DNA of 64,000 nt, taken from assembly GCF_054482595.1 (NCBI RefSeq), contig NZ_CM137008.1; one strand, given 5' to 3'. Both the position numbers and the translations under genes were made by a program. Shown piece by piece: positions 2,711 through 64,000 of this stretch. Position 1 is the first letter of the stretch. Every line of letters begins with the position of its first letter. The notes beneath the pieces are model-generated. The model saw only the letters and a program-made list of their open reading frames with translations, had not been told where the DNA came from and ran no database searches.

Positions 2711-2816
2711 GCCTGATGCGACGCTTGACGCGTCTTATCAGGCCTACGTATTTCCTGCAATTTATTGAATTTGCAAAAATTTGTAGGCTGGATAAGGCGT
2801 TCACGCCGCATCCGGC
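2711..2816. repeat. REP/BIME element (two inverted REP copies) between convergent dtpD and phr
   Basis: gcctgatgcgacgcttgacgcgtcttatcaggcctac ... gtaggctggataaggcgttcacgccgcatccggc; matches the E. coli REP consensus. Confidence 0.8.
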
Positions 2817-28341: not shown

Positions 28342-28357
28342 ATAGCGAAACTTAAAA

Positions 28358-30022
28358 TTACTCGCCTACTTTCGCCCAGGTATCACGCAGCCCAACGGTG
28401 CGGTTAAATACCGGTTTTTCCGCCGTAGAATGGCGGCTATCGAGGCAGAAGTAACCTTCACGCTCAAACTGGAATGCTTTACCCGCTACCGCATCTTTCA
28501 GCGACGGTTCAGCAAAGCCCTGTTTGATCACCAGCGATTCCGGGTTAATCACCGACAGGAAATCATCCGCAGCACCTGGGTTAGGCACGCTGAACAGACG
28601 ATCATACAAACGGATTTCAACCGGCAGCGCATGTGCCGCGCTCACCCAGTGAATAACGCCTTTGACTTTACGACCATCAGCCGGATCTTTGCTTAAGGTG
28701 TCGGCGTCATAAGTACAGAAGATGGTGGTGATATTACCTTCGGCATCTTTCTCGACGCGTTCTGCCTTAATCACATAAGCATTACGCAGACGCACTTCTT
28801 TACCGAGCACCAGACGTTTGTACTGCTTGTTAGCTTCTTCGCGGAAATCGGCGCGATCGATCCAAATCTCACCGCTAAACGGCACCTGACGGCTGCCCAT
28901 TTCCGGTTTGTTCGGATGGTTCGGCATGGTAACCATTTCGCCTTCGCCCTGATAGTTTTCGATAACCAGTTTCACCGGATCGATAACCGCCATTGCGCGC
29001 GGCGCATTTTCGTTGAGATCTTCACGGATGCAGGATTCCAGCGACGCCATCTCAATGGTGTTGTCCTGCTTGGTCACGCCGATGCGTTTGCAGAACTCAC
29101 GAATAGAAGCCGCAGTGTAACCACGACGACGCAGACCGGAAATGGTCGGCATACGCGGGTCATCCCAGCCTTCAACGTGCTTATCGGTCACCAGCAGGTT
29201 CAGCTTACGCTTGGACATCACAGTGTATTCCAGATTCAGGCGCGAGAACTCATACTGGCGCGGGTGAACAGGAATGGTGATGTTGTCCAGTACCCAGTCG
29301 TACAGACGACGGTTGTCCTGGAACTCCAGCGTACACAGAGAGTGCGTAATACCTTCCAGCGCATCGCTGATGCAATGGGTGAAGTCGTACATCGGGTAGA
29401 TGCACCACTTGTTGCCAGTCTGGTGGTGTTCAGCAAATTTAATGCGGTACAGCACCGGATCGCGCATCACGATAAACGGTGAAGCCATGTCGATTTTCGC
29501 ACGCAGGCAGGCTTTACCTTCTTCAAAACCGCCGGTACGCATTTTCTCGAACAGCGCCAGGTTCTCTTCAACGCTACGGTCGCGGTACGGGCTGTTTTTA
29601 CCAGGCTGCGTCAGGGTGCCGCGGTATTCGCGGATCTGTTCCGGCGTCAGTTCATCAACGTACGCCAGGCCTTTATTGATCAGTTCGATCGCATAGGCGT
29701 GGAGCTGATCAAAATAATCGGAGGAGTAACGGACGTTACCAGACCAGTGAAAACCTAACCACTCAACGTCGTTTTTGATCGAATCGACATACTCGATATC
29801 TTCTTTTACCGGGTTAGTGTCGTCGAAACGCAGGTTGCACTGGCCTTTATAGTCCTGGGCGATCCCGAAGTTCAGGCAGATAGATTTCGCATGGCCAATA
29901 TGCAGATAGCCATTCGGCTCCGGCGGGAAACGGGTGTGTACTGTGGTGTGCTTACCACTGGCCAGATCTTCATCGATGATCTGACGGATAAAGTTAGTCG
30001 GGCGGGCTTCTGCCTCACTCAT
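28358..30022 (-). CDS. glnS: Glutaminyl-tRNA synthetase
   Basis: 554 aa with class I HIGH motif (HIGHAKS) and MSK (VMSKR) motif. Confidence 0.95.
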
Positions 30023-36797: not shown

Positions 36798-38462
36798 ATG
36801 TGTTCAATTTTTGGCGTATTCGATATCAAAACAGACGCAGTTGAGCTGCGTAAGAAAGCACTCGAGCTGTCACGCCTGATGCGTCATCGTGGCCCGGACT
36901 GGTCCGGTATTTATGCCAGCGATAACGCCATTCTCGCCCACGAACGTCTGTCAATTGTTGACGTTAACGCGGGGGCGCAACCTCTCTACAACCAACAAAA
37001 AACTCATGTGCTGGCGGTAAACGGTGAAATCTACAACCACCAGGCACTGCGCGCCGAATATGGCGATCGTTATCAGTTCCAGACCGGATCTGACTGCGAA
37101 GTGATCCTCGCGCTGTATCAGGAAAAAGGGCCGGAATTTCTCGACGACTTGCAGGGCATGTTTGCCTTTGCCCTGTACGACAGCGAAAAAGATGCATATC
37201 TGATTGGTCGCGACCATCTGGGGATCATCCCACTGTATATGGGCTATGACGAGCACGGTCAGCTGTATGTGGCCTCAGAAATGAAAGCCCTGGTGCCAGT
37301 TTGCCGCACGATTAAAGAGTTCCCGGCGGGGAGCTATTTGTGGAGTCAGGACGGCGAAATCCGTTCTTATTATCATCGCGACTGGTTCGACTTTGATGCA
37401 GTGAAAGATAACGTGACCGACAAAAACGAGCTGCGTCAGGCACTGGAAGATTCCGTTAAAAGCCATCTGATGTCTGACGTTCCTTACGGTGTGCTGCTCT
37501 CGGGTGGTCTGGATTCCTCAATTATTTCCGCGATCACCAAGAAATACGCCGCCCGTCGCGTGGAAGATCAGGAACGCTCTGAAGCCTGGTGGCCGCAATT
37601 ACACTCCTTTGCTGTAGGTCTGCCGGGTTCACCGGATCTGAAAGCAGCCCAGGAAGTGGCAAACCATCTGGGCACGGTGCATCACGAAATTCACTTCACT
37701 GTACAGGAAGGTCTGGATGCCATCCGCGACGTGATTTACCACATCGAAACCTATGATGTGACAACTATTCGCGCTTCAACACCGATGTATTTAATGTCGC
37801 GTAAGATCAAGGCAATGGGCATTAAAATGGTGCTGTCCGGTGAAGGTTCTGATGAAGTGTTTGGCGGTTATCTTTACTTCCACAAAGCACCGAATGCCAA
37901 AGAACTGCATGAAGAGACGGTGCGTAAACTGCTGGCCCTGCATATGTATGACTGCGCGCGCGCCAACAAAGCGATGTCAGCCTGGGGCGTGGAAGCACGC
38001 GTTCCGTTCCTCGACAAAAAATTCCTTGATGTGGCGATGCGCATTAACCCGCAGGATAAAATGTGCGGTAACGGCAAAATAGAAAAACACATCCTGCGTG
38101 AATGTTTTGAGTCATACCTGCCCGCAAGCGTGGCCTGGCGGCAGAAAGAGCAGTTCTCCGATGGCGTCGGTTACAGTTGGATCGACACCCTGAAAGAAGT
38201 GGCGGCGCAGCAGGTTTCTGATCAGCAACTGGAAACTGCCCGCTTCCGCTTCCCGTACAACACGCCAACCTCAAAAGAAGCGTATCTGTACCGGGAGATC
38301 TTTGAAGAACTGTTCCCGCTTCCGAGCGCCGCTGAGTGCGTGCCTGGCGGTCCTTCCGTCGCGTGTTCTTCCGCTAAAGCGATTGAGTGGGATGAGGCGT
38401 TCAAGAAAATGGACGATCCGTCTGGTCGTGCGGTTGGCGTTCACCAGTCGGCGTATAAGTAA
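36798..38462 (+). CDS. asnB: Asparagine synthetase B (glutamine-hydrolysing)
   Basis: 554 aa from MCSIFGVF (N-terminal Cys nucleophile after Met); ATG at 36798 preceded by ggaga; SGGLDSS PP-loop present. The ORF-track start at 36717 is an extension. Confidence 0.95.
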   Translation: MCSIFGVFDIKTDAVELRKKALELSRLMRHRGPDWSGIYASDNAILAHERLSIVDVNAGAQPLYNQQKTHVLAVNGEIYNHQALRAEYGDRYQFQTGSDCEVILALYQEKGPEFLDDLQGMFAFALYDSEKDAYLIGRDHLGIIPLYMGYDEHGQLYVASEMKALVPVCRTIKEFPAGSYLWSQDGEIRSYYHRDWFDFDAVKDNVTDKNELRQALEDSVKSHLMSDVPYGVLLSGGLDSSIISAITKKYAARRVEDQERSEAWWPQLHSFAVGLPGSPDLKAAQEVANHLGTVHHEIHFTVQEGLDAIRDVIYHIETYDVTTIRASTPMYLMSRKIKAMGIKMVLSGEGSDEVFGGYLYFHKAPNAKELHEETVRKLLALHMYDCARANKAMSAWGVEARVPFLDKKFLDVAMRINPQDKMCGNGKIEKHILRECFESYLPASVAWRQKEQFSDGVGYSWIDTLKEVAAQQVSDQQLETARFRFPYNTPTSKEAYLYREIFEELFPLPSAAECVPGGPSVACSSAKAIEWDEAFKKMDDPSGRAVGVHQSAYK

Positions 38463-38472
38463 GAAATGCGAA

Positions 38473-38505
38473 ACAGCCCCGGTGAAATCCGGGGCTGTTT
38501 CAGTT
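38473..38505 (+). terminator. Terminator after asnB
   Basis: acagccccgg tgaaat ccggggctgt followed by a T-rich tail. Confidence 0.6.
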
Positions 38506-38773
38506 ATTGAGGTGCTTGTTAATTCTGATATGCAGTAAGGAAATGTTCCGGGTTTGCCACATCACTGTTTGACAACTCATCACTGTAGGCCAGTATTTCA
38601 TAGATTAATTTCCCACCACTATTGTTGAATTCCGAATTTCATCCTGTACGACAAAAGAATGGCTGTAGGGTGGGGAAAAAACACAAAGTAAACAATAATT
38701 GACGAATATAGCGCCACGCTGTTCGCAACCTAACCAAACAGTCACTTTCGAGCAATTTTCCTTGAAAAAGAGG

Positions 38774-38802
38774 TTGACGCTGCAAGGCTCTATACGCATA
38801 AT
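38774..38802 (+). promoter_or_regulatory. Sigma-70 promoter of the tRNA operon with GC-rich discriminator
   Basis: TTGACG, 17-nt spacer, CATAAT, then gcgccccgc; about 40 nt upstream of the first tRNA. Confidence 0.6.
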
Positions 38803-38842
38803 GCGCCCCGCAACGCCGATAAGGTATCGCGAAAAAAAAGAT

Positions 38843-38919
38843 GGCTACGTAGCTCAGTTGGTTAGAGCACATCACTCATAATGATGGGGTCACAGGTTCG
38901 AATCCCGTCGTAGCCACCA
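38843..38919 (+). tRNA. metT: tRNA-Met (elongator, anticodon CAU)
   Basis: ggctacgtagctcagttggttagagcacatcactCATaatgatggggtcacaggttcgaatcccgtcgtagccacca; cloverleaf, CCA end. Confidence 0.93.
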
Positions 38920-38927
38920 TCTTTTTT

Positions 38928-39012
38928 GCGGGAGTGGCGAAATTGGTAGACGCACCAGATTTAGGTTCTGGCGCCGCAAGGTGTGCGAGTTCAAGTCTCG
39001 CCTCCCGCACCA
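38928..39012 (+). tRNA. leuW: tRNA-Leu (anticodon UAG), long variable arm
   Basis: gcgggagtggcgaaattggtagacgcaccagattTAGgttctgg...ctcccgcacca. Confidence 0.9.
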
Positions 39013-39035
39013 TTCACCAGAAAGCGTTGTACGGA

Positions 39036-39110
39036 TGGGGTATCGCCAAGCGGTAAGGCACCGGTTTTTGATACCGGCATTCCCTGGTTCGAATCCAGGT
39101 ACCCCAGCCA
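39036..39110 (+). tRNA. glnU: tRNA-Gln (anticodon UUG)
   Basis: tggggtatcgccaagcggtaaggcaccggtttTTGataccgg...accccagcca. Confidence 0.9.
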
Positions 39111-39144
39111 TCTTCTTCGAGTAAGCGGTTCACCGCCCGGTTAT

Positions 39145-39219
39145 TGGGGTATCGCCAAGCGGTAAGGCACCGGTTTTTGATACCGGCATTCCCTGGTTCG
39201 AATCCAGGTACCCCAGCCA
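39145..39219 (+). tRNA. glnW: tRNA-Gln (anticodon UUG), duplicate copy
   Basis: Same sequence as the preceding tRNA-Gln(UUG). Confidence 0.9.
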
Positions 39220-39234
39220 TCGAAGAAACAATCT

Positions 39235-39311
39235 GGCTACGTAGCTCAGTTGGTTAGAGCACATCACTCATAATGATGGGGTCACAGGTTCGAATCCCGT
39301 CGTAGCCACCA
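39235..39311 (+). tRNA. metU: tRNA-Met (elongator, CAU), duplicate copy
   Basis: Identical to the metT copy. Confidence 0.9.
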
Positions 39312-39359
39312 AATTCTGAATGTGTCGAATACGTTCGGCAAATTCAAAAACCAATTTGT

Positions 39360-39434
39360 TGGGGTATCGCCAAGCGGTAAGGCACCGGATTCTGATTCCG
39401 GCATTCCGAGGTTCGAATCCTCGTACCCCAGCCA
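39360..39434 (+). tRNA. glnV: tRNA-Gln (anticodon CUG, wild-type)
   Basis: ...caccggattCTGattccgg...; anticodon CUG, so not a supE allele. Confidence 0.9.
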
Positions 39435-39471
39435 ATTTATTCAAGACGCTTACATCGTAAGTGCGCCCAGT

Positions 39472-39546
39472 TGGGGTATCGCCAAGCGGTAAGGCACCGG
39501 ATTCTGATTCCGGCATTCCGAGGTTCGAATCCTCGTACCCCAGCCA
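39472..39546 (+). tRNA. glnX: tRNA-Gln (anticodon CUG), duplicate copy
   Basis: Same sequence as the glnV copy. Confidence 0.9.
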
Positions 39547-39553
39547 CATTAAA

Positions 39554-39584
39554 AAAGCTCGCTTCGGCGAGCTTTTTGCTTTTC
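39554..39584 (+). terminator. Rho-independent terminator of the tRNA operon
   Basis: aaagctcgc ttcg gcgagcttt followed by ttgctttt. Confidence 0.75.
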
Positions 39585-39596
39585 TGCGTTCATTCA

Positions 39597-39690
39597 ATGT
39601 CGAATGCGATGTTGACACGTCTTATCCTTCAATGTCGGATGCGACGCTGCCGCGTCTTATCCGACCTACGGTTGGCACGCATCCGGCAAT
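39597..39690. repeat. REP/BIME cluster between the tRNA operon and ubiF
   Basis: ttcaatgtcgaatgcgatgttgacacgtcttatcc / ttcaatgtcggatgcgacgctgccgcgtcttatccgacctac / gcatccggcaatg. Confidence 0.7.
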
Positions 39691-39699
39691 GTTGTAAGG

Positions 39700-40875
39700 C
39701 TACAACCCTAACGCATATTTCAGCGCCTGACGTTTCAACACGCCAGCACGCTCCGCCGCCATCAAACCAAGATTACGCACAAAACGCAGCGGCGGCAGAT
39801 TATTACTGAATCCGGCATAAAACAGATCCATACCACTTTGCATAATGAAGTTATCCGCCATGCGCCGCATCTGGTAACGCTTGAGGACAGGATAACTGGC
39901 CCACGCTTCACCGTAGCTGCGGGCATTCACCAGAACATCAATCAGGGCATCGACATCACGATAACCAAGATTCACCCCCTGCCCCGCCAGCGGATGGATG
40001 GTATGCGCGGCATCGCCCACCAGCGCAAGCCCCGGCTGCACATACTGCAACGCATGTCGGCGCGTCAGCGGAAACGCACCAGCGGCAAGCGGTGTAACGT
40101 AACCCAGACGCGACGGGAAATGCTTCGCGATTTCCGCCTGGAGTTGCGCCATATTCATATTCTGCAACTGGCGAATACGCGCCGGAGAGTCATACCACAC
40201 CAGCGATGCCCAGTTATCAAACAACGGCAGAAACGCACGCGGTCCGTCCGGGGTAAATTGCTGCCAGGTGCTGTCGCCGGGATCGTTCTCACACTGTACG
40301 CTAATCAACATACACGACTGCGCATACTGCCAGGCATGAACGCCAATTCCCGCCATCTGCCGCACCTGCGAATTTGCGCCGTCGGCACCAATCACCAGTT
40401 TCGCGCGGATCGTTTCACCGCCCTTCAGTTCCAGCTCCTGAAGATCATTATGGCGATGCAGCGCAATCAGCGAGCCTGGCACACGTAACGTTACTTTCGG
40501 ATGCGCTTCCAGCGCCTGCCACAACGCCTGTTGCAGGACGGTGTTTTCCACCATATAGCCAAGCAGCGGCAGCTTAAGTTCAGCGGCGTCAAACACCACA
40601 TGCGCCGTTTCCCACTCCCACGTTTCCAGTCTGCGGTAAGGATGGCAACGCATAGCCTGTACTGCATCCCAGACCCCTAACCCTTTAAGCAATGATACCG
40701 AAGCCGCGCTGATCGCTGAGATCCGCACATCCGGCTGGCTGTCAGCGACAAACGGTGCAGGTTCTGCGTGCTCGATCACCGTTACCGAAAATCCGTGCTG
40801 TGCCAGCCCCAGCGCCAGTGCGCCGCCGACCATTCCTCCGCCGACAATGGCAATTTCCGTTGGTTGATTTGTCAT
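39700..40875 (-). CDS. ubiF: 2-octaprenyl-3-methyl-6-methoxy-1,4-benzoquinol hydroxylase (FAD monooxygenase)
   Basis: 391 aa from the ATG at 40875 (MTNQPTEIAIVGGGMVGG, FAD-binding GxGxxG); the ORF-track start two codons upstream is a TTG. Confidence 0.9.
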   Translation of the reverse strand: MTNQPTEIAIVGGGMVGGALALGLAQHGFSVTVIEHAEPAPFVADSQPDVRISAISAASVSLLKGLGVWDAVQAMRCHPYRRLETWEWETAHVVFDAAELKLPLLGYMVENTVLQQALWQALEAHPKVTLRVPGSLIALHRHNDLQELELKGGETIRAKLVIGADGANSQVRQMAGIGVHAWQYAQSCMLISVQCENDPGDSTWQQFTPDGPRAFLPLFDNWASLVWYDSPARIRQLQNMNMAQLQAEIAKHFPSRLGYVTPLAAGAFPLTRRHALQYVQPGLALVGDAAHTIHPLAGQGVNLGYRDVDALIDVLVNARSYGEAWASYPVLKRYQMRRMADNFIMQSGMDLFYAGFSNNLPPLRFVRNLGLMAAERAGVLKRQALKYALGL

Positions 40876-41020: not shown

Positions 41021-42445
41021 ATGACCAAAAAACTCCATATTAAAACCTGGGGCTGTCAGATGAACGAGTACGATTCATCGAAGATGGCCGATCTGCTGGA
41101 TGCCACCCACGGCTATCAACTGACCGACGTGGCGGAAGAAGCGGATGTGCTGCTGCTGAACACCTGCTCAATCCGCGAGAAGGCTCAGGAAAAAGTCTTC
41201 CATCAGTTGGGTCGCTGGAAACTGTTAAAAGAGAAGAATCCAGACCTGATTATCGGCGTCGGTGGCTGCGTGGCATCGCAAGAAGGCGAGCACATTCGCC
41301 AGCGCGCCCACTATGTCGATATTATTTTTGGGCCGCAAACGCTGCACCGTCTGCCGGAGATGATCAACTCCGTGCGCGGCGACCGCAGCCCGGTTGTAGA
41401 TATCAGCTTCCCGGAAATCGAGAAGTTTGACCGTCTACCGGAACCGCGCGCCGAAGGGCCGACCGCGTTTGTCTCCATCATGGAAGGCTGCAATAAATAT
41501 TGTACCTACTGCGTGGTGCCTTACACCCGTGGTGAAGAGGTAAGCCGTCCGTCTGACGATATTCTGTTTGAGATTGCCCAGCTTGCTGCTCAGGGCGTGC
41601 GTGAAGTCAACCTGCTCGGTCAGAACGTGAACGCCTGGCGTGGTGAAAACTACGACGGCACCACCGGATCGTTTGCCGATCTGCTGCGTCTGGTTGCTGC
41701 GATCGACGGGATCGATCGTATTCGCTTTACCACCAGCCATCCGATCGAATTCACCGACGATATCATCGAAGTGTACCGCGACACGCCTGAGCTGGTGAGC
41801 TTCCTGCATCTGCCGGTACAAAGCGGTTCCGATCGCATTCTGAACCTGATGGGCCGTACTCACACGGCGCTGGAGTACAAAGCGATCATCCGTAAACTGC
41901 GTGCGGCGCGTCCGGATATTCAGATCAGTTCTGACTTCATTGTTGGCTTCCCTGGCGAAACCACCGAAGACTTCGAGAAAACGATGAAGCTGATTGCCGA
42001 CGTCAATTTCGACATGAGCTACAGCTTTATCTTCTCTGCACGTCCGGGGACGCCCGCCGCCGATATGGTGGATGATGTTCCGGAAGAAGAGAAGAAGCAG
42101 CGTCTGTATATTCTGCAAGAGCGCATTAATCAGCAAGCGATGGCGTGGAGCCGCCGGATGCTCGGCACCACCCAGCGTATTCTGGTAGAAGGTACATCGC
42201 GTAAGAGCATCATGGAGCTTTCCGGGCGTACGGAAAATAACCGCGTGGTCAACTTCGAAGGCACGCCGGATATGATCGGTAAATTCGTCGATGTAGAAAT
42301 TACCGACGTCTACCCGAACTCTCTGCGCGGTAAAGTGGTGCGAACTGAAGATGAAATGGGTCTGCGCATGGCAGAAACACCGGAGTCGGTGATTGCCCGC
42401 ACCCGCAAAGAAAACGACCTTGGCGTGGGTTATTATCAGCCGTAA
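41021..42445 (+). CDS. miaB: tRNA-i6A37 methylthiotransferase MiaB (radical SAM)
   Basis: 474 aa; CNKYCTYC radical-SAM cysteine motif. Confidence 0.95.
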
Positions 42446-42597: not shown

Positions 42598-43638
42598 TTG
42601 AACATAGACACTCGCGAAATCACCCTGGAGCCAGCAGACAACGCGCGTCTGTTGAGCCTGTGCGGCCCGTTTGATGACAACATCAAGCAGCTCGAACGCC
42701 GTCTCGGCATCGAGATCAATCGCCGCGATAACCACTTTAAACTGACCGGCCGTCCGATTTGCGTCACCGCTGCGGCAGACATTCTGCGTAGCCTGTATGT
42801 CGATACAGCCCCGATGCGCGGTCAGATTCAGGATATCGAACCGGAACAGATCCACCTTGCGATTAAAGAAGCGCGAGTACTGGAGCAAAGTGCGGAGAGC
42901 GTGCCGGAGTACGGCAAAGCGGTCAATATCAAAACCAAACGCGGCGTAATTAAGCCGCGCACGCCAAACCAGGCGCAGTACATCGCCAATATTCTCGACC
43001 ATGACATTACCTTCGGCGTTGGCCCGGCGGGTACGGGTAAAACCTACCTGGCAGTGGCTGCGGCAGTTGATGCCCTGGAGCGTCAGGAGATTCGCCGTAT
43101 TCTGCTGACTCGTCCGGCGGTCGAAGCCGGTGAGAAACTGGGCTTCCTGCCTGGCGATTTAAGCCAGAAAGTAGACCCGTATCTGCGCCCGCTGTACGAC
43201 GCGCTGTTTGAAATGCTGGGCTTTGAGAAAGTTGAGAAACTGATTGAGCGCAACGTTATTGAAGTCGCGCCGCTGGCCTATATGCGTGGTCGTACGCTGA
43301 ACGACGCGTTTATCATTCTCGATGAGAGCCAGAACACCACCATCGAACAGATGAAGATGTTCCTGACCCGTATCGGTTTTAACTCAAAAGCGGTTATCAC
43401 CGGCGACGTCACACAGATCGACCTGCCGCGTAATACTAAATCAGGCTTACGTCACGCCATCGAAGTGCTGGCCGATGTCGAAGAGATCAGCTTTAACTTC
43501 TTCCACAGCGAAGACGTGGTTCGTCACCCTGTGGTGGCGCGTATCGTTAACGCCTATGAAGCCTGGGAAGAAGCCGAACAAAAACGAAAAGCGGCGCTGG
43601 CGGCAGAACGCAAGCGCGAAGAACAGGAACAAAAATGA
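42598..43638 (+). CDS. ybeZ: PhoH-like ATPase YbeZ
   Basis: 346 aa from a TTG at 42598 preceded by aagaggaa; Walker A GPAGTGKT. The ORF-track ATG at 42559 would give 359 aa; the start is ambiguous. Confidence 0.85.
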
Positions 43639-44102
43639 GTCAGGTGATCCTCGATTTACAACTGGCATGTGAAGATAATTCCGGGTTACCGGAAGAGAGC
43701 CAGTTTCAAACATGGCTGAATGCGGTGATCCCGCAGTTTCAGGAAGAATCGGAAGTGACTATTCGCGTGGTCGATACCGCCGAAAGCCACAGTCTGAATC
43801 TGACCTATCGCGGTAAGGATAAGCCGACCAACGTGCTCTCCTTCCCGTTTGAAGTGCCGCCTGGCATGGAAATGTCGCTACTGGGCGATCTGGTTATCTG
43901 CCGTCAGGTGGTTGAGAAGGAAGCTCAGGAGCAAGGCAAACCACTGGAGGCGCACTGGGCGCATATGGTGGTGCACGGCAGTCTGCATTTGTTAGGTTAC
44001 GATCACATCGAAGATGACGAAGCAGAAGAAATGGAAGCCCTCGAAACAGAGATTATGCTTGCTCTGGGCTATGAGGATCCGTACATTGCCGAGAAAGAAT
44101 AA
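43635..44102 (+). CDS. ybeY: Endoribonuclease YbeY (16S rRNA maturation)
   Basis: 155 aa; HxxxH...H metal motif ([11 protein letters not shown]); start overlaps the ybeZ stop (ATGA). Confidence 0.93.
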
Positions 44103-45094: not shown

Positions 45095-46633
45095 ATGGCT
45101 TTTGCCTCATTAATTGAACGCCAGCGCATTCGCCTGCTGCTGGCGTTATTATTCGGTGCCTGCGGAACGCTGGCCTTCTCTCCTTACGATGTCTGGCCTG
45201 CGGCGATTATTTCGCTGATGGGGCTTCAGGCGTTGACCTTTAACCGCCGTCCACTCCAGTCTGCCGCTATTGGCTTTTGCTGGGGATTTGGCCTCTTTGG
45301 CAGCGGTATTAACTGGGTCTATGTCAGCATCGCGACCTTTGGCGGGATGCCTGGCCCGGTTAACATCTTCCTGGTGGTGCTGCTGGCGGCGTATTTGTCG
45401 CTGTATACCGGACTGTTTGCTGGCGTGCTGTCGCGTCTGTGGCCGAAAACCACCTGGCTGCGCGTGGCGATTGCCGCCCCTGCTCTCTGGCAAGTGACCG
45501 AGTTTCTGCGTGGTTGGGTACTGACCGGCTTCCCGTGGTTACAGTTCGGCTATAGCCAGATTGATGGCCCGTTAAAAGGGCTGGCACCAATAATGGGCGT
45601 GGAAGCCATTAACTTCCTGCTGATGATGGTTAGCGGCCTGCTGGCACTGGCGTTAGTCAAACGCAACTGGCGTCCGCTGGTGGTGGCCGTCGTGCTGTTT
45701 GCCCTTCCCTTCCCGCTGCGTTACATCCAATGGTTTACCCCGCAACCGGAGAAAACCATTCAGGTTTCGATGGTTCAGGGCGATATTCCGCAATCACTGA
45801 AATGGGATGGAGATCAGCTTCTTAATACGCTGAAGATTTACTACAACGCAACGGCACCGCTGATGGGCAAATCATCGTTGATTATCTGGCCGGAGTCGGC
45901 GATAACCGATCTGGAAATTAATCAGCAACCGTTCCTCAAAGCACTGGACGGTGAGTTGCGCGATAAAGGGAGTACGCTGGTAACCGGGATTGTCGACGCG
46001 CGCCTCAATAAGCAGAACCGCTACGATACCTACAACACCATTATCACGCTGGGTAAAGGTGCACCGTACAGCTACGAATCAGCCGATCGCTATAACAAAA
46101 ACCATCTGGTGCCGTTTGGCGAGTTTGTCCCGCTGGAGTCGATTCTGCGTCCGTTAGCACCGTTCTTTGATCTGCCGATGTCGTCGTTCAGCCGTGGGCC
46201 ATATATCCAGCCGCCGCTGTCAGTAAACGGTATTGAGCTTACTGCGGCTATTTGCTACGAGATCATTCTCGGCGAGCAAGTGCGCGATAACTTCCGCCCG
46301 GATACCGACTATCTGCTGACTATCTCCAACGATGCGTGGTTTGGTAAGTCTATTGGTCCATGGCAGCACTTCCAGATGGCGCGAATGCGTGCGCTGGAGC
46401 TGGCGCGCCCACTGTTGCGCAGCACCAACAACGGCATTACGGCGGTGATTGGCCCGCAGGGTGAGATTCAGGCGATGATCCCGCAGTTCACCCGCGAGGT
46501 GTTAACCACTAACGTGACGCCGACCACCGGACTCACACCATACGCACGTACCGGCAACTGGCCGCTGTGGGTGCTGACGGCACTGTTTGGTTTTGCTGCT
46601 GTGTTGATGAGTCTGCGTCAGCGACGTAAATAA
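45095..46633 (+). CDS. lnt: Apolipoprotein N-acyltransferase
   Basis: 512 aa; N-terminal transmembrane region plus C-terminal nitrilase-like domain. Confidence 0.93.
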
Positions 46634-47029
46634 TCCCTTCTTATCGTGCCGGAATACATCCCATATTTCGGCACGCTCACCGGATGCGGCATCAGTGCAT
46701 TATCCGGATAACAATATTCTCCTATCCAACTTTGGCACATCTATTGCTTTGTTATACAAGGCAAAGCTTTAACCAGCATCAGTACAACCCGGTTGCACCG
46801 CAGCAATCCACCGGTAGCACCAAAAGAGTGCATTTTAAGAATTTTGCTTCGGAATGGTGCGGTGCACCTCGCAAAAACAAACAATAAAACATCAATATCT
46901 TTACATTTAACCAAACTAAATGTTACCTAACAGTCACAACACTGCACAATAAAGTTGCAGACGATAACAACACAAACACTCACAACGAGTATCCATGCGT
47001 TCTTAACGCAGAAGATAAAGGAGTTGGAT

Positions 47030-47938
47030 ATGCAATTACGTAAACCTGCCACAGCAATCCTGGCCCTGGCGCTTTCCGCAGGACTGGCACAGGCAGATGA
47101 CGCCGCCCCGGTAGCGGGCAGTACGCTGGACAAAATCGCCAAAAACGGCGTGATTGTCGTCGGTCACCGTGAATCTTCAGTACCTTTCTCTTATTACGAC
47201 AATCAGCAAAAAGTGGTGGGTTACTCGCAGGATTACTCCAACGCCATTGTTGAAGCAGTGAAAAAGAAACTCAACAAACCGGACTTGCAGGTGAAACTGA
47301 TTCCGATCACCTCACAAAACCGTATTCCTCTTCTGCAAAACGGCACTTTCGATTTTGAATGTGGTTCTACCACCAACAACGTCGAACGCCAAAAACAGGC
47401 GGCTTTCTCTGACACTATTTTCGTGGTCGGTACGCGCCTGTTGACCAAAAAGGGCGGCGATATCAAAGATTTTGCCGACCTGAAAGGCAAAGCCGTAGTC
47501 GTCACTTCCGGCACTACCTCTGAAGTTTTGCTCAACAAACTGAATGAAGAGCAAAAAATGAATATGCGCATCATCAGCGCCAAAGATCACGGTGACTCTT
47601 TCCGTACCCTGGAAAGCGGTCGTGCCGTTGCCTTTATGATGGATGATGCTCTGCTGGCCGGTGAACGTGCGAAAGCGAAGAAACCAGACAACTGGGATAT
47701 CGTCGGCAAGCCGCAGTCTCAGGAAGCCTATGGTTGCATGTTGCGTAAAGACGATCCGCAGTTCAAAAAGCTGATGGATGACACTATCGCTCAGGTGCAG
47801 ACCTCCGGTGAAGCGGAAAAATGGTTTGATAAATGGTTCAAAAATCCCATTCCGCCGAAAAACCTGAACATGAATTTCGAACTGTCAGACGAAATGAAAG
47901 CACTGTTCAAAGAACCGAATGACAAAGCACTGAACTAA
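47030..47938 (+). CDS. gltI: Glutamate/aspartate ABC transporter periplasmic binding protein
   Basis: 302 aa from MQLRKPATAILALALSAGLAQA (signal peptide); ATG at 47030. Confidence 0.93.
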   Translation: MQLRKPATAILALALSAGLAQADDAAPVAGSTLDKIAKNGVIVVGHRESSVPFSYYDNQQKVVGYSQDYSNAIVEAVKKKLNKPDLQVKLIPITSQNRIPLLQNGTFDFECGSTTNNVERQKQAAFSDTIFVVGTRLLTKKGGDIKDFADLKGKAVVVTSGTTSEVLLNKLNEEQKMNMRIISAKDHGDSFRTLESGRAVAFMMDDALLAGERAKAKKPDNWDIVGKPQSQEAYGCMLRKDDPQFKKLMDDTIAQVQTSGEAEKWFDKWFKNPIPPKNLNMNFELSDEMKALFKEPNDKALN

Positions 47939-47941
47939 TTA

Positions 47942-48095
47942 CAAGAACCAGGGGCGGAAATTCTAGCCCTCTCGATTGTTACGTAGCACGGACAGACTAT
48001 ACGCCTGATGGTCGTTCCCCATCGGGCCTGAAAACCGCAATACGCTGGGTAACAATCTTCGAGGGTAGCAGTTAACGCTGCTACCCTCTTTTTTC
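47942..48095 (+). ncRNA. sroC: SroC small RNA region (gltI-gltJ intergenic spacer) with 3' terminator hairpin
   Basis: 169-nt spacer ending in gagggtagcag ttaac gctgctaccctc followed by tttttt (48061-48095); the position matches where SroC is processed from the gltIJKL mRNA. Confidence 0.5.
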
Positions 48096-48107
48096 TGGAG
48101 TAGATTT

Positions 48108-59995: not shown

Positions 59996-62578
59996 ATGCA
60001 AGAGCAATACCGCCCGGAAGAGATAGAATCCAAAGTACAGCTTCATTGGGATGAGAAGCGCACATTTGAAGTAACCGAAGACGAGAGCAAAGAGAAGTAT
60101 TACTGCCTGTCTATGCTTCCCTATCCTTCTGGTCGACTACACATGGGCCACGTACGTAACTACACCATCGGTGACGTGATCGCCCGTTACCAGCGCATGC
60201 TGGGCAAAAACGTTCTGCAGCCGATCGGCTGGGACGCGTTTGGTCTGCCTGCGGAAGGCGCGGCGGTGAAAAACAACACCGCTCCGGCACCGTGGACGTA
60301 CGACAACATCGCGTATATGAAAAACCAGCTCAAAATGCTGGGCTTTGGTTATGACTGGAGCCGCGAGCTGGCAACCTGTACGCCGGAATACTACCGTTGG
60401 GAACAGAAATTCTTCACCGAGCTGTATAAAAAAGGCCTGGTATATAAGAAGACTTCTGCGGTCAACTGGTGCCCGAACGACCAGACCGTACTGGCGAACG
60501 AACAAGTTATCGACGGCTGCTGCTGGCGCTGCGATACCAAAGTTGAACGTAAAGAGATCCCGCAGTGGTTTATCAAAATCACTGCTTACGCTGACGAGCT
60601 GCTCAACGATCTGGATAAACTGGATCACTGGCCAGACACCGTTAAAACCATGCAGCGTAACTGGATCGGTCGTTCCGAAGGCGTGGAAATCACCTTCAAC
60701 GTTAACGACTATGACAACACGCTGACCGTTTACACTACCCGCCCGGACACCTTTATGGGTTGTACCTACCTGGCGGTAGCTGCGGGTCATCCGCTGGCGC
60801 AGAAAGCGGCAGAAAATAATCCTGAACTGGCGGCCTTTATTGACGAATGCCGTAACACCAAAGTTGCCGAAGCTGAAATGGCGACGATGGAGAAAAAAGG
60901 CGTCGATACTGGCTTTAAAGCTGTTCACCCATTAACGGGCGAAGAAATTCCCGTTTGGGCAGCAAACTTCGTATTGATGGAGTACGGCACGGGCGCAGTT
61001 ATGGCGGTTCCGGGTCACGACCAGCGCGACTACGAGTTTGCCTCTAAATACGGCCTGAACATCAAACCGGTTATCCTGGCAGCTGACGGCTCTGAGCCAG
61101 ATCTTTCTCAACAAGCCCTGACTGAAAAAGGCGTGCTGTTCAACTCTGGCGAGTTCAACGGTCTTGACCATGAAGCGGCCTTCAACGCCATCGCCGATAA
61201 ACTGACTGCGATGGGCGTTGGCGAGCGTAAAGTGAACTACCGCCTGCGCGACTGGGGTGTTTCCCGTCAGCGTTACTGGGGCGCGCCGATTCCGATGGTG
61301 ACGCTGGAAGACGGTACCGTAATGCCGACCCCGGACGACCAGCTGCCGGTGATCCTGCCGGAAGATGTGGTAATGGACGGCATTACCAGCCCGATTAAAG
61401 CAGATCCGGAGTGGGCGAAAACTACCGTTAACGGTATGCCAGCACTGCGTGAAACCGACACTTTCGACACCTTTATGGAGTCCTCCTGGTACTATGCGCG
61501 CTACACTTGCCCGCAGTACAAAGAAGGTATGCTGGATTCCGAAGCGGCTAACTACTGGCTGCCGGTGGATATCTACATTGGTGGTATCGAACACGCCATT
61601 ATGCACCTGCTCTACTTCCGCTTCTTCCACAAACTGATGCGTGATGCAGGCATGGTGAACTCTGACGAACCAGCGAAACAGTTGCTGTGTCAGGGTATGG
61701 TGCTGGCAGATGCCTTCTACTATGTTGGCGAAAACGGCGAACGTAACTGGGTTTCCCCGGTTGATGCTATCGTTGAACGTGACGAGAAAGGCCGTATCGT
61801 GAAAGTGAAAGATGCGGCAGGCCATGAACTGGTTTATACCGGCATGAGCAAAATGTCCAAGTCGAAGAACAACGGTATCGACCCGCAGGTGATGGTTGAA
61901 CGTTACGGCGCGGACACCGTTCGTCTGTTTATGATGTTTGCTTCTCCGGCTGATATGACTCTCGAATGGCAGGAGTCCGGCGTGGAAGGGGCTAACCGCT
62001 TCCTGAAACGTGTCTGGAAACTGGTGTACGAGCATACTGCGAAAGGTGATGTTGCGGCACTGAACGTTGATGCACTGACTGAAGATCAGAAAGCGCTGCG
62101 TCGCGATGTGCATAAAACTATCGCTAAAGTGACCGATGATATCGGCCGTCGTCAGACCTTCAACACCGCAATTGCGGCGATTATGGAGCTGATGAACAAA
62201 CTGGCGAAAGCACCGACCGATGGCGAGCAGGATCGCGCTCTGATGCAGGAAGCACTGCTGGCCGTTGTCCGTATGCTTAACCCGTTCACCCCGCACATTT
62301 GCTTCACGCTGTGGCAGGAACTGAAAGGCGAAGGCGATATCGACAACGCGCCGTGGCCGGTTGCTGACGAAAAAGCGATGGTGGAAGACTCCACGCTGGT
62401 CGTGGTGCAGGTTAACGGTAAAGTCCGTGCCAAAATCACCGTTCCGGTGGACGCAACGGAAGAACAGGTTCGCGAACGTGCTGGCCAGGAACATCTGGTA
62501 GCAAAATATCTTGATGGCGTTACTGTACGTAAAGTGATTTACGTACCAGGTAAACTCCTCAATCTGGTCGTTGGCTAA
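59996..62578 (+). CDS. leuS: Leucyl-tRNA synthetase
   Basis: 860 aa from [11 protein letters not shown] (ATG at 59996); HMGH and KMSKS motifs. Confidence 0.95.
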
Positions 62579-62592
62579 GCGCGGGAGGAAGC

Positions 62593-63174
62593 GTGCGATA
62601 TCTGGCAACATTGTTGTTATCTCTGGCGGTGTTAATCACCGCCGGGTGTGGCTGGCATCTGCGTGACACCACGCAGGTTCCTTCCACTATGAAGGTCATG
62701 ATCCTGGACTCAGGCGATCCGAACGGGCCATTAAGCCGTGCGGTGCGTAACCAGTTACGTCTGAATGGTGTCGAGTTGCTTGATAAAGAAACCACGCGTA
62801 AGGACGTTCCATCCCTGCGTTTGGGTAAAGTGAGCATCGCGAAAGATACCGCATCGGTATTCCGTAACGGTCAAACAGCAGAGTATCAGATGATCATGAC
62901 GGTGAATGCGACCGTGTTGATCCCCGGCCGTGATATCTACCCGATTAGCGCCAAAGTCTTCCGTTCGTTCTTTGATAACCCGCAAATGGCGTTAGCGAAA
63001 GATAACGAACAAGACATGATCGTAAAAGAGATGTACGACCGTGCTGCCGAACAGCTGATTCGTAAGCTGCCAAGCATCCGTGCTGCGGATATTCGTTCCG
63101 ACGAAGAACAGACGTCGACCACAACGGATACTCCGGCAACGCCTGCACGCGTCTCCACCACGCTGGGTAACTGA
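62593..63174 (+). CDS. lptE: LPS assembly lipoprotein LptE (RlpB)
   Basis: 193 aa; GTG start; lipobox LITAGC. Confidence 0.92.
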
Positions 63175-64000
63175 TGATTCGGTTGTACCCGGAACAACTC
63201 CGCGCGCAGCTCAATGAAGGGCTGCGCGCGGCGTATCTTTTACTTGGTAACGATCCTCTGTTATTGCAGGAAAGCCAGGACGCTGTTCGTCAGGTAGCTG
63301 CGGCACAAGGATTCGAAGAACACCACACTTTTTCCATTGATCCCAACACTGACTGGAATGCGATCTTTTCGTTATGCCAGGCTATGAGTCTGTTTGCCAG
63401 TCGACAAACGCTATTGCTGTTGTTACCAGAAAACGGACCGAATGCGGCGATCAATGAACAACTTCTCACACTCACCGGACTTCTGCATGACGACCTGCTG
63501 TTGATCGTCCGCGGTAATAAATTAAGCAAAGCGCAAGAAAATGCCGCCTGGTTTACTGCTCTTGCGAATCGCAGCGTGCAGGTGACCTGTCAGACACCGG
63601 AGCAGGCTCAGCTTCCCCGCTGGGTTGCTGCGCGCGCAAAACAACTCAACTTAGAACTGGATGACGCTGCAAATCAGGTGCTCTGCTACTGTTATGAAGG
63701 TAACCTGCTGGCGCTGGCCCAGGCACTGGAGCGTTTATCGCTGCTCTGGCCAGACGGCAAACTGACATTACCGCGCGTTGAACAGGCGGTGAATGATGCC
63801 GCGCATTTCACCCCTTTTCATTGGGTTGATGCTTTGTTGATGGGAAAAAGTAAGCGCGCGTTGCATATTCTTCAGCAACTGCGTCTGGAAGGCAGCGAGC
63901 CGGTTATTTTGTTGCGCACATTACAACGTGAACTGTTGTTACTGGTTAACCTGAAACGCCAGTCTGCCCATACGCCACTGCGTGCGTTGTTTGATAAGCA
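63174..64000 (+). CDS. holA: DNA polymerase III delta subunit, 5' portion; gene runs off the window end
   Basis: ATG at 63174 overlaps the lptE stop (TGATG); translation [39 protein letters not shown]...; no stop within the window. Confidence 0.9.
   Translation, partial: MIRLYPEQLRAQLNEGLRAAYLLLGNDPLLLQESQDAVRQVAAAQGFEEHHTFSIDPNTDWNAIFSLCQAMSLFASRQTLLLLLPENGPNAAINEQLLTLTGLLHDDLLLIVRGNKLSKAQENAAWFTALANRSVQVTCQTPEQAQLPRWVAARAKQLNLELDDAANQVLCYCYEGNLLALAQALERLSLLWPDGKLTLPRVEQAVNDAAHFTPFHWVDALLMGKSKRALHILQQLRLEGSEPVILLRTLQRELLLLVNLKRQSAHTPLRALFDK

Follow-up and report, generated by a model that had tools for sequence, protein, structure and literature searches.

The window, a stretch of 64,000 nucleotides, contains exactly seven tRNA genes, all of which ARAGORN places on the + strand. 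All seven are matched by the Rfam model RF00005 with scores of 57.6–71.1 bits, where the gathering score is 29, and with E-values from 4e-11 to 8e-15, a signal far above chance. The genes, with the elements that flank them, are arranged as follows.

38469–38502, + strand: hairpin, likely the asnB terminator; 14-pair stem with nine G–C pairs, just 3′ of the asnB stop codon
38764–38773, + strand: A-tract GAAAAAGAGG, abutting the −35 hexamer on its 5′ side (sequence)
38774–38779, + strand: −35 hexamer TTGACG (consensus scan)
38797–38802, + strand: −10 hexamer CATAAT, separated from the −35 hexamer by a 17-bp spacer (consensus scan)
38803–38809, + strand: G+C-rich discriminator GCGCCCC, 3′ of the −10 hexamer and 5′ of the predicted start site (sequence)
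38810–38842, + strand: predicted 5′ leader of about 33 nt from the predicted start site (alignment), removed by RNase P, with GCAACGCCGATAAGGT invariant and an A-tract 5′ of metT
38843–38919, + strand: metT, elongator tRNA-Met(CAU), with encoded CCA, identical in K-12 (ARAGORN, Rfam)
38928–39012, + strand: leuW, tRNA-Leu(UAG), with encoded CCA (ARAGORN, Rfam, K-12 alignment)
39036–39110, + strand: glnU, tRNA-Gln(UUG) (ARAGORN, Rfam, string comparison)
39145–39219, + strand: glnW, tRNA-Gln(UUG), a base-for-base duplicate of glnU (ARAGORN, Rfam)
39235–39311, + strand: metU, elongator tRNA-Met(CAU), a base-for-base duplicate of metT (ARAGORN, Rfam)
39360–39434, + strand: glnV, tRNA-Gln(CUG), with the wild-type anticodon (ARAGORN, Rfam, string comparison)
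39472–39546, + strand: glnX, tRNA-Gln(CUG), an exact duplicate of glnV and wild type; suppressor strains carry supE44 here (ARAGORN, Rfam)
39552–39586, + strand: Rho-independent terminator, an 11-bp stem in which AAAAAGCTCGC pairs with GCGAGCTTTTT around a TTCG loop, with GCTTTTCTG directly 3′ of it

Gene content and identity of the locus

The order and anticodons of the seven genes are those that a first-pass annotation had read from the letters of the DNA, and ARAGORN and Rfam agree on every one of them. The segment that it had delimited, 38774–39584, spans exactly the interval from the −35 hexamer to the U-tract of the terminator. Direct string comparison bears out its further claim that the Met and both Gln species are present as identical repeats: metT equals metU, glnU equals glnW and glnV equals glnX, each pair with exact string identity. 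The two Gln species differ from each other at 7 of 75 positions, which comprise the wobble base, one anticodon-stem pair and two T-stem pairs, with both sides of each pair flipped. The 3′ CCA is encoded in the genome in all seven genes, and the metT product is the elongator tRNA-Met (PMC6265465). The leucine tRNA of the operon, Leu(UAG), is the CUA-reading species. A search for hidden protein genes at the operon found none, the only open reading frames being mechanical ones that overlap the tRNAs.

The surroundings are those of an ordinary E. coli chromosome, with ybgI/dtpD, kdp, speF, fur, glnS, nag and asnB on one side of the operon and ubiF, miaB, ybeZYX, lnt, gltIJKL and leuS on the other. 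A 1,151-bp query covering the locus has matches in 5,424 of 5,426 complete E. coli genomes and matches several E. coli chromosomes, including those of E2865 and CFSAN027350, at 100% identity. K-12 W3110, with 99.1% identity over this segment, has the same gene order, anticodons and flanking genes (asnB on the same strand and ubiF convergent), and its seven tRNA sequences, promoter hexamers, discriminator, leader and terminator are all identical to those of the window. Over the 1,151 bp, ten differences separate the two sequences, each a substitution or a 1-nt indel, and all are confined to the region 5′ of the promoter and to the metT–leuW, metU–glnV and glnV–glnX spacers. The window comes from an E. 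coli lineage other than K-12, and the locus is the orthologue of the long-known seven-tRNA metT operon of E. coli, which is textbook material. Its sequence dates from 1981, when Nakajima, Ozeki and Shimura gave the first description of the operon (Cell 1981; pmid 6163550); the processing of its transcript was worked out in 2007–2008, and tests of its essentiality followed in 2018 and 2024.

Promoter, leader and terminator

A consensus scan of positions 38000–40400 found a single promoter-like site, at 38774–38802, but shuffled sequences give 2.4 ± 1.7 such sites, and the count alone is not significant. The hexamers of this site match the consensus at 10 of 12 positions, and the region upstream of it has a G+C content of 38–40%. 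Orthologous loci were taken from PLSDB (Klebsiella aerogenes, Enterobacter hormaechei, K. pneumoniae, Yersinia pseudotuberculosis and Providencia alcalifaciens), and their upstream regions were aligned with that of E. coli (n = 6). TTGAC of the −35 element, the −10 hexamer CATAAT and the discriminator GCGCCCC are invariant in all six loci, and a run of five to six A residues occupies the position of the A-tract in each. This A-tract may resemble the proximal subsite of an UP element. The invariant block GCATAATGCGCCCCGCAACGCCGATAAGGT extends from the −10 hexamer through about 20–25 early transcribed bases and is unchanged from Escherichia to Yersinia and Providencia. Drift across genera is seen in the 17 bp that separate the −35 and −10 hexamers, in the far-upstream sequence and in the spacers between the tRNA genes. 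Support for the promoter thus comes from its position and its cross-genus footprint, which are much stronger evidence than the consensus match, and the first-pass assignment of TTGACG-17-CATAAT with a GC-rich discriminator holds at the site where it was placed.

The predicted start site, at the 5′ end of the leader, fits the processing data from the literature: an RNase P mutant accumulates a precursor of about 125 nt containing metT with its unprocessed 5′ end (PMC2241853), a size that agrees with a leader of 30–40 nt. Within the leader, a predicted hairpin has an inner stem that is invariant and an outer stem that is broken in Providencia, a pattern that speaks neither for nor against the structure.

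The same annotation had described the promoter as being of a stringent type, and at the level of sequence this description fits. The 9-nt discriminator block GCGCCCCGC of the K-12 tyrT promoter is identical to that of the metT promoter, and the discriminator is invariant in the five other Enterobacterales aligned. Both promoters contain ATGCGCCCCGC across the end of the −10 element and the discriminator, and both carry the motif CCGATAAGG in the early transcribed region, offset by 1 nt, whereas the tyrT hexamers are TTTACA-16-TATGAT. We take tyrT to be the classic stringently controlled tRNA promoter (the work of Travers and of Lamond and Travers). By resemblance, the metT promoter would belong to the stringent-type class and may be under ppGpp/DksA control. 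A literature search for direct evidence that the metT promoter is under stringent or Fis control yielded nothing usable.

At the 3′ end, the terminator had been called strong, and this is the case: the hairpin at 39552–39577 has a predicted folding energy of −17.9 kcal/mol (z = −3.76) and is followed by a U-rich tract. The hairpin is kept in five genera, with compensatory changes at 2 of 13 predicted pairs in this small sample and with the core pairs retained. At the opposite end, the hairpin at 38469–38502 may form the upstream boundary, or insulator, of the tRNA transcription unit. Since genes, anticodons, promoter and terminator were all called correctly from the raw sequence, the metT operon serves as a positive control for such annotation.

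Transcription, processing and essentiality

The single promoter and single terminator suggest that the seven genes of the window form one co-transcribed unit. In K-12, northern blots revealed a full-length transcript with all seven tRNAs; RNase E takes off the terminator in vivo and splits away the two distal genes, glnV and glnX. Cuts by RNase P part the first five tRNAs from one another and make the mature 5′ ends, and the 3′ ends are completed by RNases T, PH and D (PMC2241853). The operon holds every copy of the elongator Met(CAU), Leu(UAG), Gln(UUG) and Gln(CUG) genes and cannot be deleted unless a plasmid supplies it (PMC11480407; PMC6265465). Thus, the operon is essential because it is the sole source of four anticodons.

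Concerted evolution among orthologous loci

Four of the five orthologues are flanked by asnB and ubiF, and that of Providencia by the gene for the N-acetylglucosamine repressor. That the PLSDB matches represent a plasmid-borne, mobile form of the operon was considered and rejected, as these records are mislabelled chromosomes or chromosomal fragments, or a noisy 28.8-kb contig; they serve here purely as orthologues. The order Met-Leu-Gln-Gln-Met-Gln(-Gln) is kept in Klebsiella, Enterobacter, Yersinia and Providencia, with a single Gln(CUG) gene in Yersinia and a Gln(UUG) gene in the last slot in Providencia. In Yersinia, metT and metU are identical to each other and each differs from its E. 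coli counterpart at four positions; likewise, glnU and glnW are identical to each other and each differs at eight. The two Klebsiella Met copies share the same single change. The spacers vary in both length and sequence between genera, while the paralogues match within each species. Paralogues that are alike within species and divergent between them require recombination or gene conversion between the copies.

Copy-number variation among E. coli genomes

The identical genes of the window form exact direct repeats of 75–77 nt (100% identity), spaced 109, 112 and 392 bp apart, and the first-pass annotation had expected them to make the locus prone to recombinational changes in copy number. We searched 5,426 complete E. 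coli genomes with junction-specific queries, the sequences of which were predicted from unequal crossing-over. The junction expected from collapse of glnU and glnW to one Gln(UUG) gene is present in up to 65 of the 5,426 genomes, and that expected from collapse of glnV and glnX to one Gln(CUG) gene in up to 139, including E24377A; these counts do not represent independent events, as many records are clonally related. For the one-Gln(UUG) form, all 25 of the 25 matches listed carry three annotated Gln genes, and the lineages range from canine and bovine isolates through laboratory derivatives of K-12 and B. The one-Gln(CUG) junction was read directly in strain Ec387.

Expanded forms also occur. 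A three-copy query, ranked by best E-value, matched at least 15 records with three Gln(UUG) genes at 100% identity, and this form was confirmed by annotation and ARAGORN in the BL21(DE3) and XL1-Blue assemblies. Three Gln(CUG) genes are present in at least five genomes. Representatives of the six-gene form are E24377A, MG1655p and strain 1943, and those of the eight-gene form are BL21(DE3) (GCF_019754155.1), XL1-Blue (GCF_019645995.1), PI7 and FDN-11. A flanked junction query for the Gln(UUG) triplication was dropped, because overlapping pieces were joined in some normal genomes and ties masked true matches. The seven-gene form is retained by about 96% of complete E. coli genomes.

Six-gene and eight-gene forms of the expected structure are thus present among the genome records, and on this ground, together with the concerted evolution between genera, the locus can be regarded as prone to recombination. 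Because E. coli tRNA genes had earlier been reported to vary by ±1 copy (PMC4539685), our result confirms rather than discovers this behaviour, and the observation that about 4% of complete E. coli assemblies are off by one Gln tRNA gene is a modest addition to what is known of the operon.

Two assemblies depart further from the seven-gene form. In CEA224S, the promoter is fused straight to the terminator and an exact 705-bp tRNA block is absent, with the lysT tRNA operon intact. Relocation of the operon to the plasmid of this strain was considered and rejected: pCEA224S has no annotated tRNA and the chromosome has no second copy of the operon. In IAL7250, only Met-Gln(CUG)-Gln(CUG) is left, with leuW and glnU/glnW missing, an arrangement that fits collapse between metT and metU. 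Because the operon is essential (PMC11480407), both deletions are most likely assembly errors or, for CEA224S, possibly a polishing error.

The supE44 position

The first-pass annotation had singled out glnV as carrying a wild-type CUG anticodon. The anticodon is right, but the choice of gene was slightly off target, as the amber suppressor supE44 maps to the seventh gene, glnX (PMC11148124). Both glnV and glnX of the window have CUG. A CUA anticodon is found at the glnX position in EV36-5a and XL1-Blue, and in both strains the RefSeq annotation omits this gene. The supE (CUA) allele of glnX is silently dropped by annotation pipelines.

Alternative explanations

The copy-number differences could in principle be artefacts of assembly or polishing at a short tandem repeat, with no real recombination behind them. 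The eight-gene form appears in five laboratory strains from one submitter, which belong to two unrelated lineages (K-12 derivatives and BL21(DE3)), whereas other K-12 records have seven genes. Furthermore, neither CEA224S, without the whole block, nor IAL7250, without leuW and glnU/glnW, would be expected to be viable (PMC11480407), and the CEA224S plasmid record is rich in frameshifted pseudogenes, which points to a noisy assembly. Some of the variants are therefore probably artefacts. As an account of the variation as a whole, however, this explanation is on the unlikely side, since the six-gene forms are spread over numerous unrelated lineages deposited by numerous submitters, the reference genome E24377A among them, and their junctions are exactly those predicted for recombination inside identical genes. 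Moreover, related genera show fixed differences in copy number, such as the single Gln(CUG) gene of Yersinia, the within-species identity and between-species divergence of the paralogues need recombination, and the earlier report of ±1 variation (PMC4539685) points the same way.

Two further readings concern the operon itself. If an internal promoter 5′ of metU drove Met-Gln-Gln, the locus would consist of two transcription units descended from a duplicated ancestral module, and the gene order does resemble a duplicated Met-(Leu)-Gln-Gln/Met-Gln-Gln module; a metU–glnV–glnX intermediate is also seen in RNase E mutants (PMC2241853). This intermediate, however, arises by an RNase P cut at the 5′ end of metU, and the full-length seven-tRNA transcript was detected in the same work (PMC2241853). 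In the window, the consensus scan found no promoter-like site between 38803 and 39546, and the spacer that precedes metU after glnW is just 15 nt, which together make a second unit very improbable. Equally, one copy of each identical pair might be a silent or redundant pseudogene, leaving an operon of effectively four tRNAs; strains with a single Gln(UUG) or a single Gln(CUG) gene exist, and E. coli is viable on plasmid-supplied metU alone (PMC6265465). Yet the duplicates are base-identical and share one transcript, none of the copies has a damaged cloverleaf, a missing CCA or a reduced Rfam score, each is present in processing intermediates (PMC2241853), and the seven genes are kept in most genomes, and we give silent copies almost no credence.

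Discussion

Our preferred reading, that the window carries the known metT operon, with one promoter, stepwise processing, sole-source products and recombination between its repeats, has in our estimation a probability of about 0.97. According to this reading, transcription would start from the single sigma-70 promoter (TTGACG-17-CATAAT) about 33 nt 5′ of metT. The discriminator GCGCCCC and the upstream A-tract would place this promoter in the class that serves rRNA and tRNA genes, and by analogy with that class its output would be higher at faster growth and lower under ppGpp/DksA. A polycistronic transcript of about 770 nt would stop at the intrinsic terminator; as published for K-12, RNase E would act first, at the terminator and at glnV/glnX, RNase P would next generate the mature 5′ ends, and exonucleases would trim the 3′ ends to the encoded CCA. 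The exact direct repeats would provide substrates for unequal crossing-over and gene conversion, and recombination between them would keep the paralogues identical within a species, with the occasional gain or loss of one Gln gene.

A more speculative proposal, which we think unlikely, is that the conserved block from the −10 hexamer into the leader, which tyrT shares in part, is a functional module that does more than an ordinary G+C-rich discriminator, or that the six-, seven- and eight-gene forms reflect selected tuning of CAA/CAG decoding and not neutral turnover. Candidate roles for such a module include an element of the initial transcribed region that sets sensitivity to ppGpp/DksA or to supercoiling, and a leader RNA that acts after its release by RNase P. 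The 3′ETS of leuZ acts as a released RNA and offers a parallel for the possible role of the leader.

With about 4% of genomes carrying Gln-gene variants and a few assemblies lacking essential genes, the locus is a handy sentinel for both short-repeat recombination and assembly errors. Other E. coli operons, such as glyVXY, lysT-valT-lysW-valZ-lysYZQ and argQZYV, likewise have tandem tRNA genes of identical sequence that are transcribed together. Unlike these repeated-gene tRNA operons, the metT operon contains all copies of four anticodons, and with these four wholly in one unit, the copy number of a gene may drop to one but not to zero (PMC11480407).

Gene content of the metT operon across E. 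coli assemblies

In two E. coli assemblies, the operon lacks tRNA genes. In strain CEA224S (NZ_CP166080.1, locus L002 4200–4260), the seven-tRNA block is exactly absent, with the promoter and leader joined directly to the terminator. A search of the rest of the chromosome and the plasmid found no Gln tRNA, and the lysT tRNA operon is intact. Because a real loss would be non-viable, this gap probably reflects a local error in assembly or polishing. In strain IAL7250 (NZ_CM130729.1, locus L008 693–1003), the operon is reduced to Met-Gln(CUG)-Gln(CUG), the form expected from a metT/metU collapse that deletes leuW, glnU and glnW. Since the tRNAs encoded by these three genes are essential, the reduced form is likely to reflect a collapse during assembly.

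Three Gln(UUG) genes are present in all five common laboratory strains deposited by one submitter (BL21(DE3), XL1-Blue, XL10-Gold, Stbl4 and TOP10), whereas other K-12 records carry two. The loci examined for this form were those of BL21(DE3) (GCF_019754155.1, L006) and XL1-Blue (GCF_019645995.1, L007), and the additional gene in this single-submitter set could be either real or a pipeline artefact.

The seventh gene, glnX, has a supE-type CUA anticodon in EV36-5a (L003 1372–1446) and XL1-Blue (L007 1245–1319). In both strains, this gene is called 'Pyl' by ARAGORN and is missing entirely from the RefSeq annotation.

The last operon slot across genera

The content of the last operon slot differs among genera. 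In Enterobacter hormaechei (L014 1082–1156), the Gln(CUG) gene in seventh place differs from the sixth gene at 10 positions. The Yersinia operon (L016) contains one Gln(CUG) gene, and the Providencia operon (L017) has none, its last slot being occupied by Gln(UUG) (L017 1140–1214).

The E. hormaechei sequence comes from a record labelled as a plasmid (CP103578.1, pMB8072_1, 517 kb; typed IncFIB/IncHI2A), which holds the chromosomal asnB–tRNA operon–ubiF segment. Several further PLSDB 'plasmids', 0.3–5 Mb in size, clearly represent chromosomes or pieces of them.

Spacer hairpins and the downstream element

Three elements were located within and immediately downstream of the operon:

39312–39359, hairpin in the metU–glnV spacer (−11.4 kcal/mol, z = −3.3 by folding)
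39435–39471, hairpin in the glnV–glnX spacer
39590–39690, REP/BIME-type element in the interval from the operon terminator to the stop codon of ubiF

RNase E has been reported to cut in both of these spacers (PMC2241853). Alignment with K-12 revealed that the changes in the glnV–glnX spacer spare the hairpin stem, lying either in the loop or outside the paired region; in the metU–glnV spacer, one change lies in the loop and one disrupts a stem pair. The REP/BIME-type element contains two direct repeats of 35 nt each, and its Rfam matches to naRNA4, on both strands, are weak and below threshold.

Other features of the window

The window also contains the following features:

2740–2782, minus strand, ES036/CssrF (Rfam gathering-level match, 73.4 bits)
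about 28357–30022, glnS, Gln-tRNA synthetase gene, ~9 kb upstream of the operon
41021–42445, miaB, tRNA-modification enzyme MiaB, downstream of the operon
about 43600–44100, ybeY, RNase YbeY, downstream of the operon
47934–48096, plus strand, sRNA SroC in the gltI–gltJ region (Rfam gathering-level match, 170.8 bits)
62000–64000, leuS, Leu-tRNA synthetase gene, downstream of the operon

The operon is the source of all Gln tRNAs and of the Leu(UAG) tRNA, and the translation-related glnS, miaB, ybeY and leuS lie nearby. Their closeness to the operon, already known from the E. coli map, is probably coincidental. Between lnt and gltI (46630–46785), a ~2.1-kb segment found in strain E2865 is missing from the window; the E2865 annotation gives this segment as a pseudogene of a rhomboid-family protease, carrying an internal stop.

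Conservation of the promoter–leader block

Alignment revealed that the −10 hexamer, the discriminator and ~20 nt of the 5′ leader (38795–38830; GCATAATGCGCCCCGCAACGCCGATAAGGT) are unchanged from E. coli through to Yersinia and Providencia, unlike the inter-tRNA spacers, which drift between genera. This degree of conservation in the 5′ leader is higher than a simple spacer would require. Two elements of the metT operon promoter region, ATGCGCCCCGC and CCGATAAGG, are shared with the K-12 tyrT promoter.
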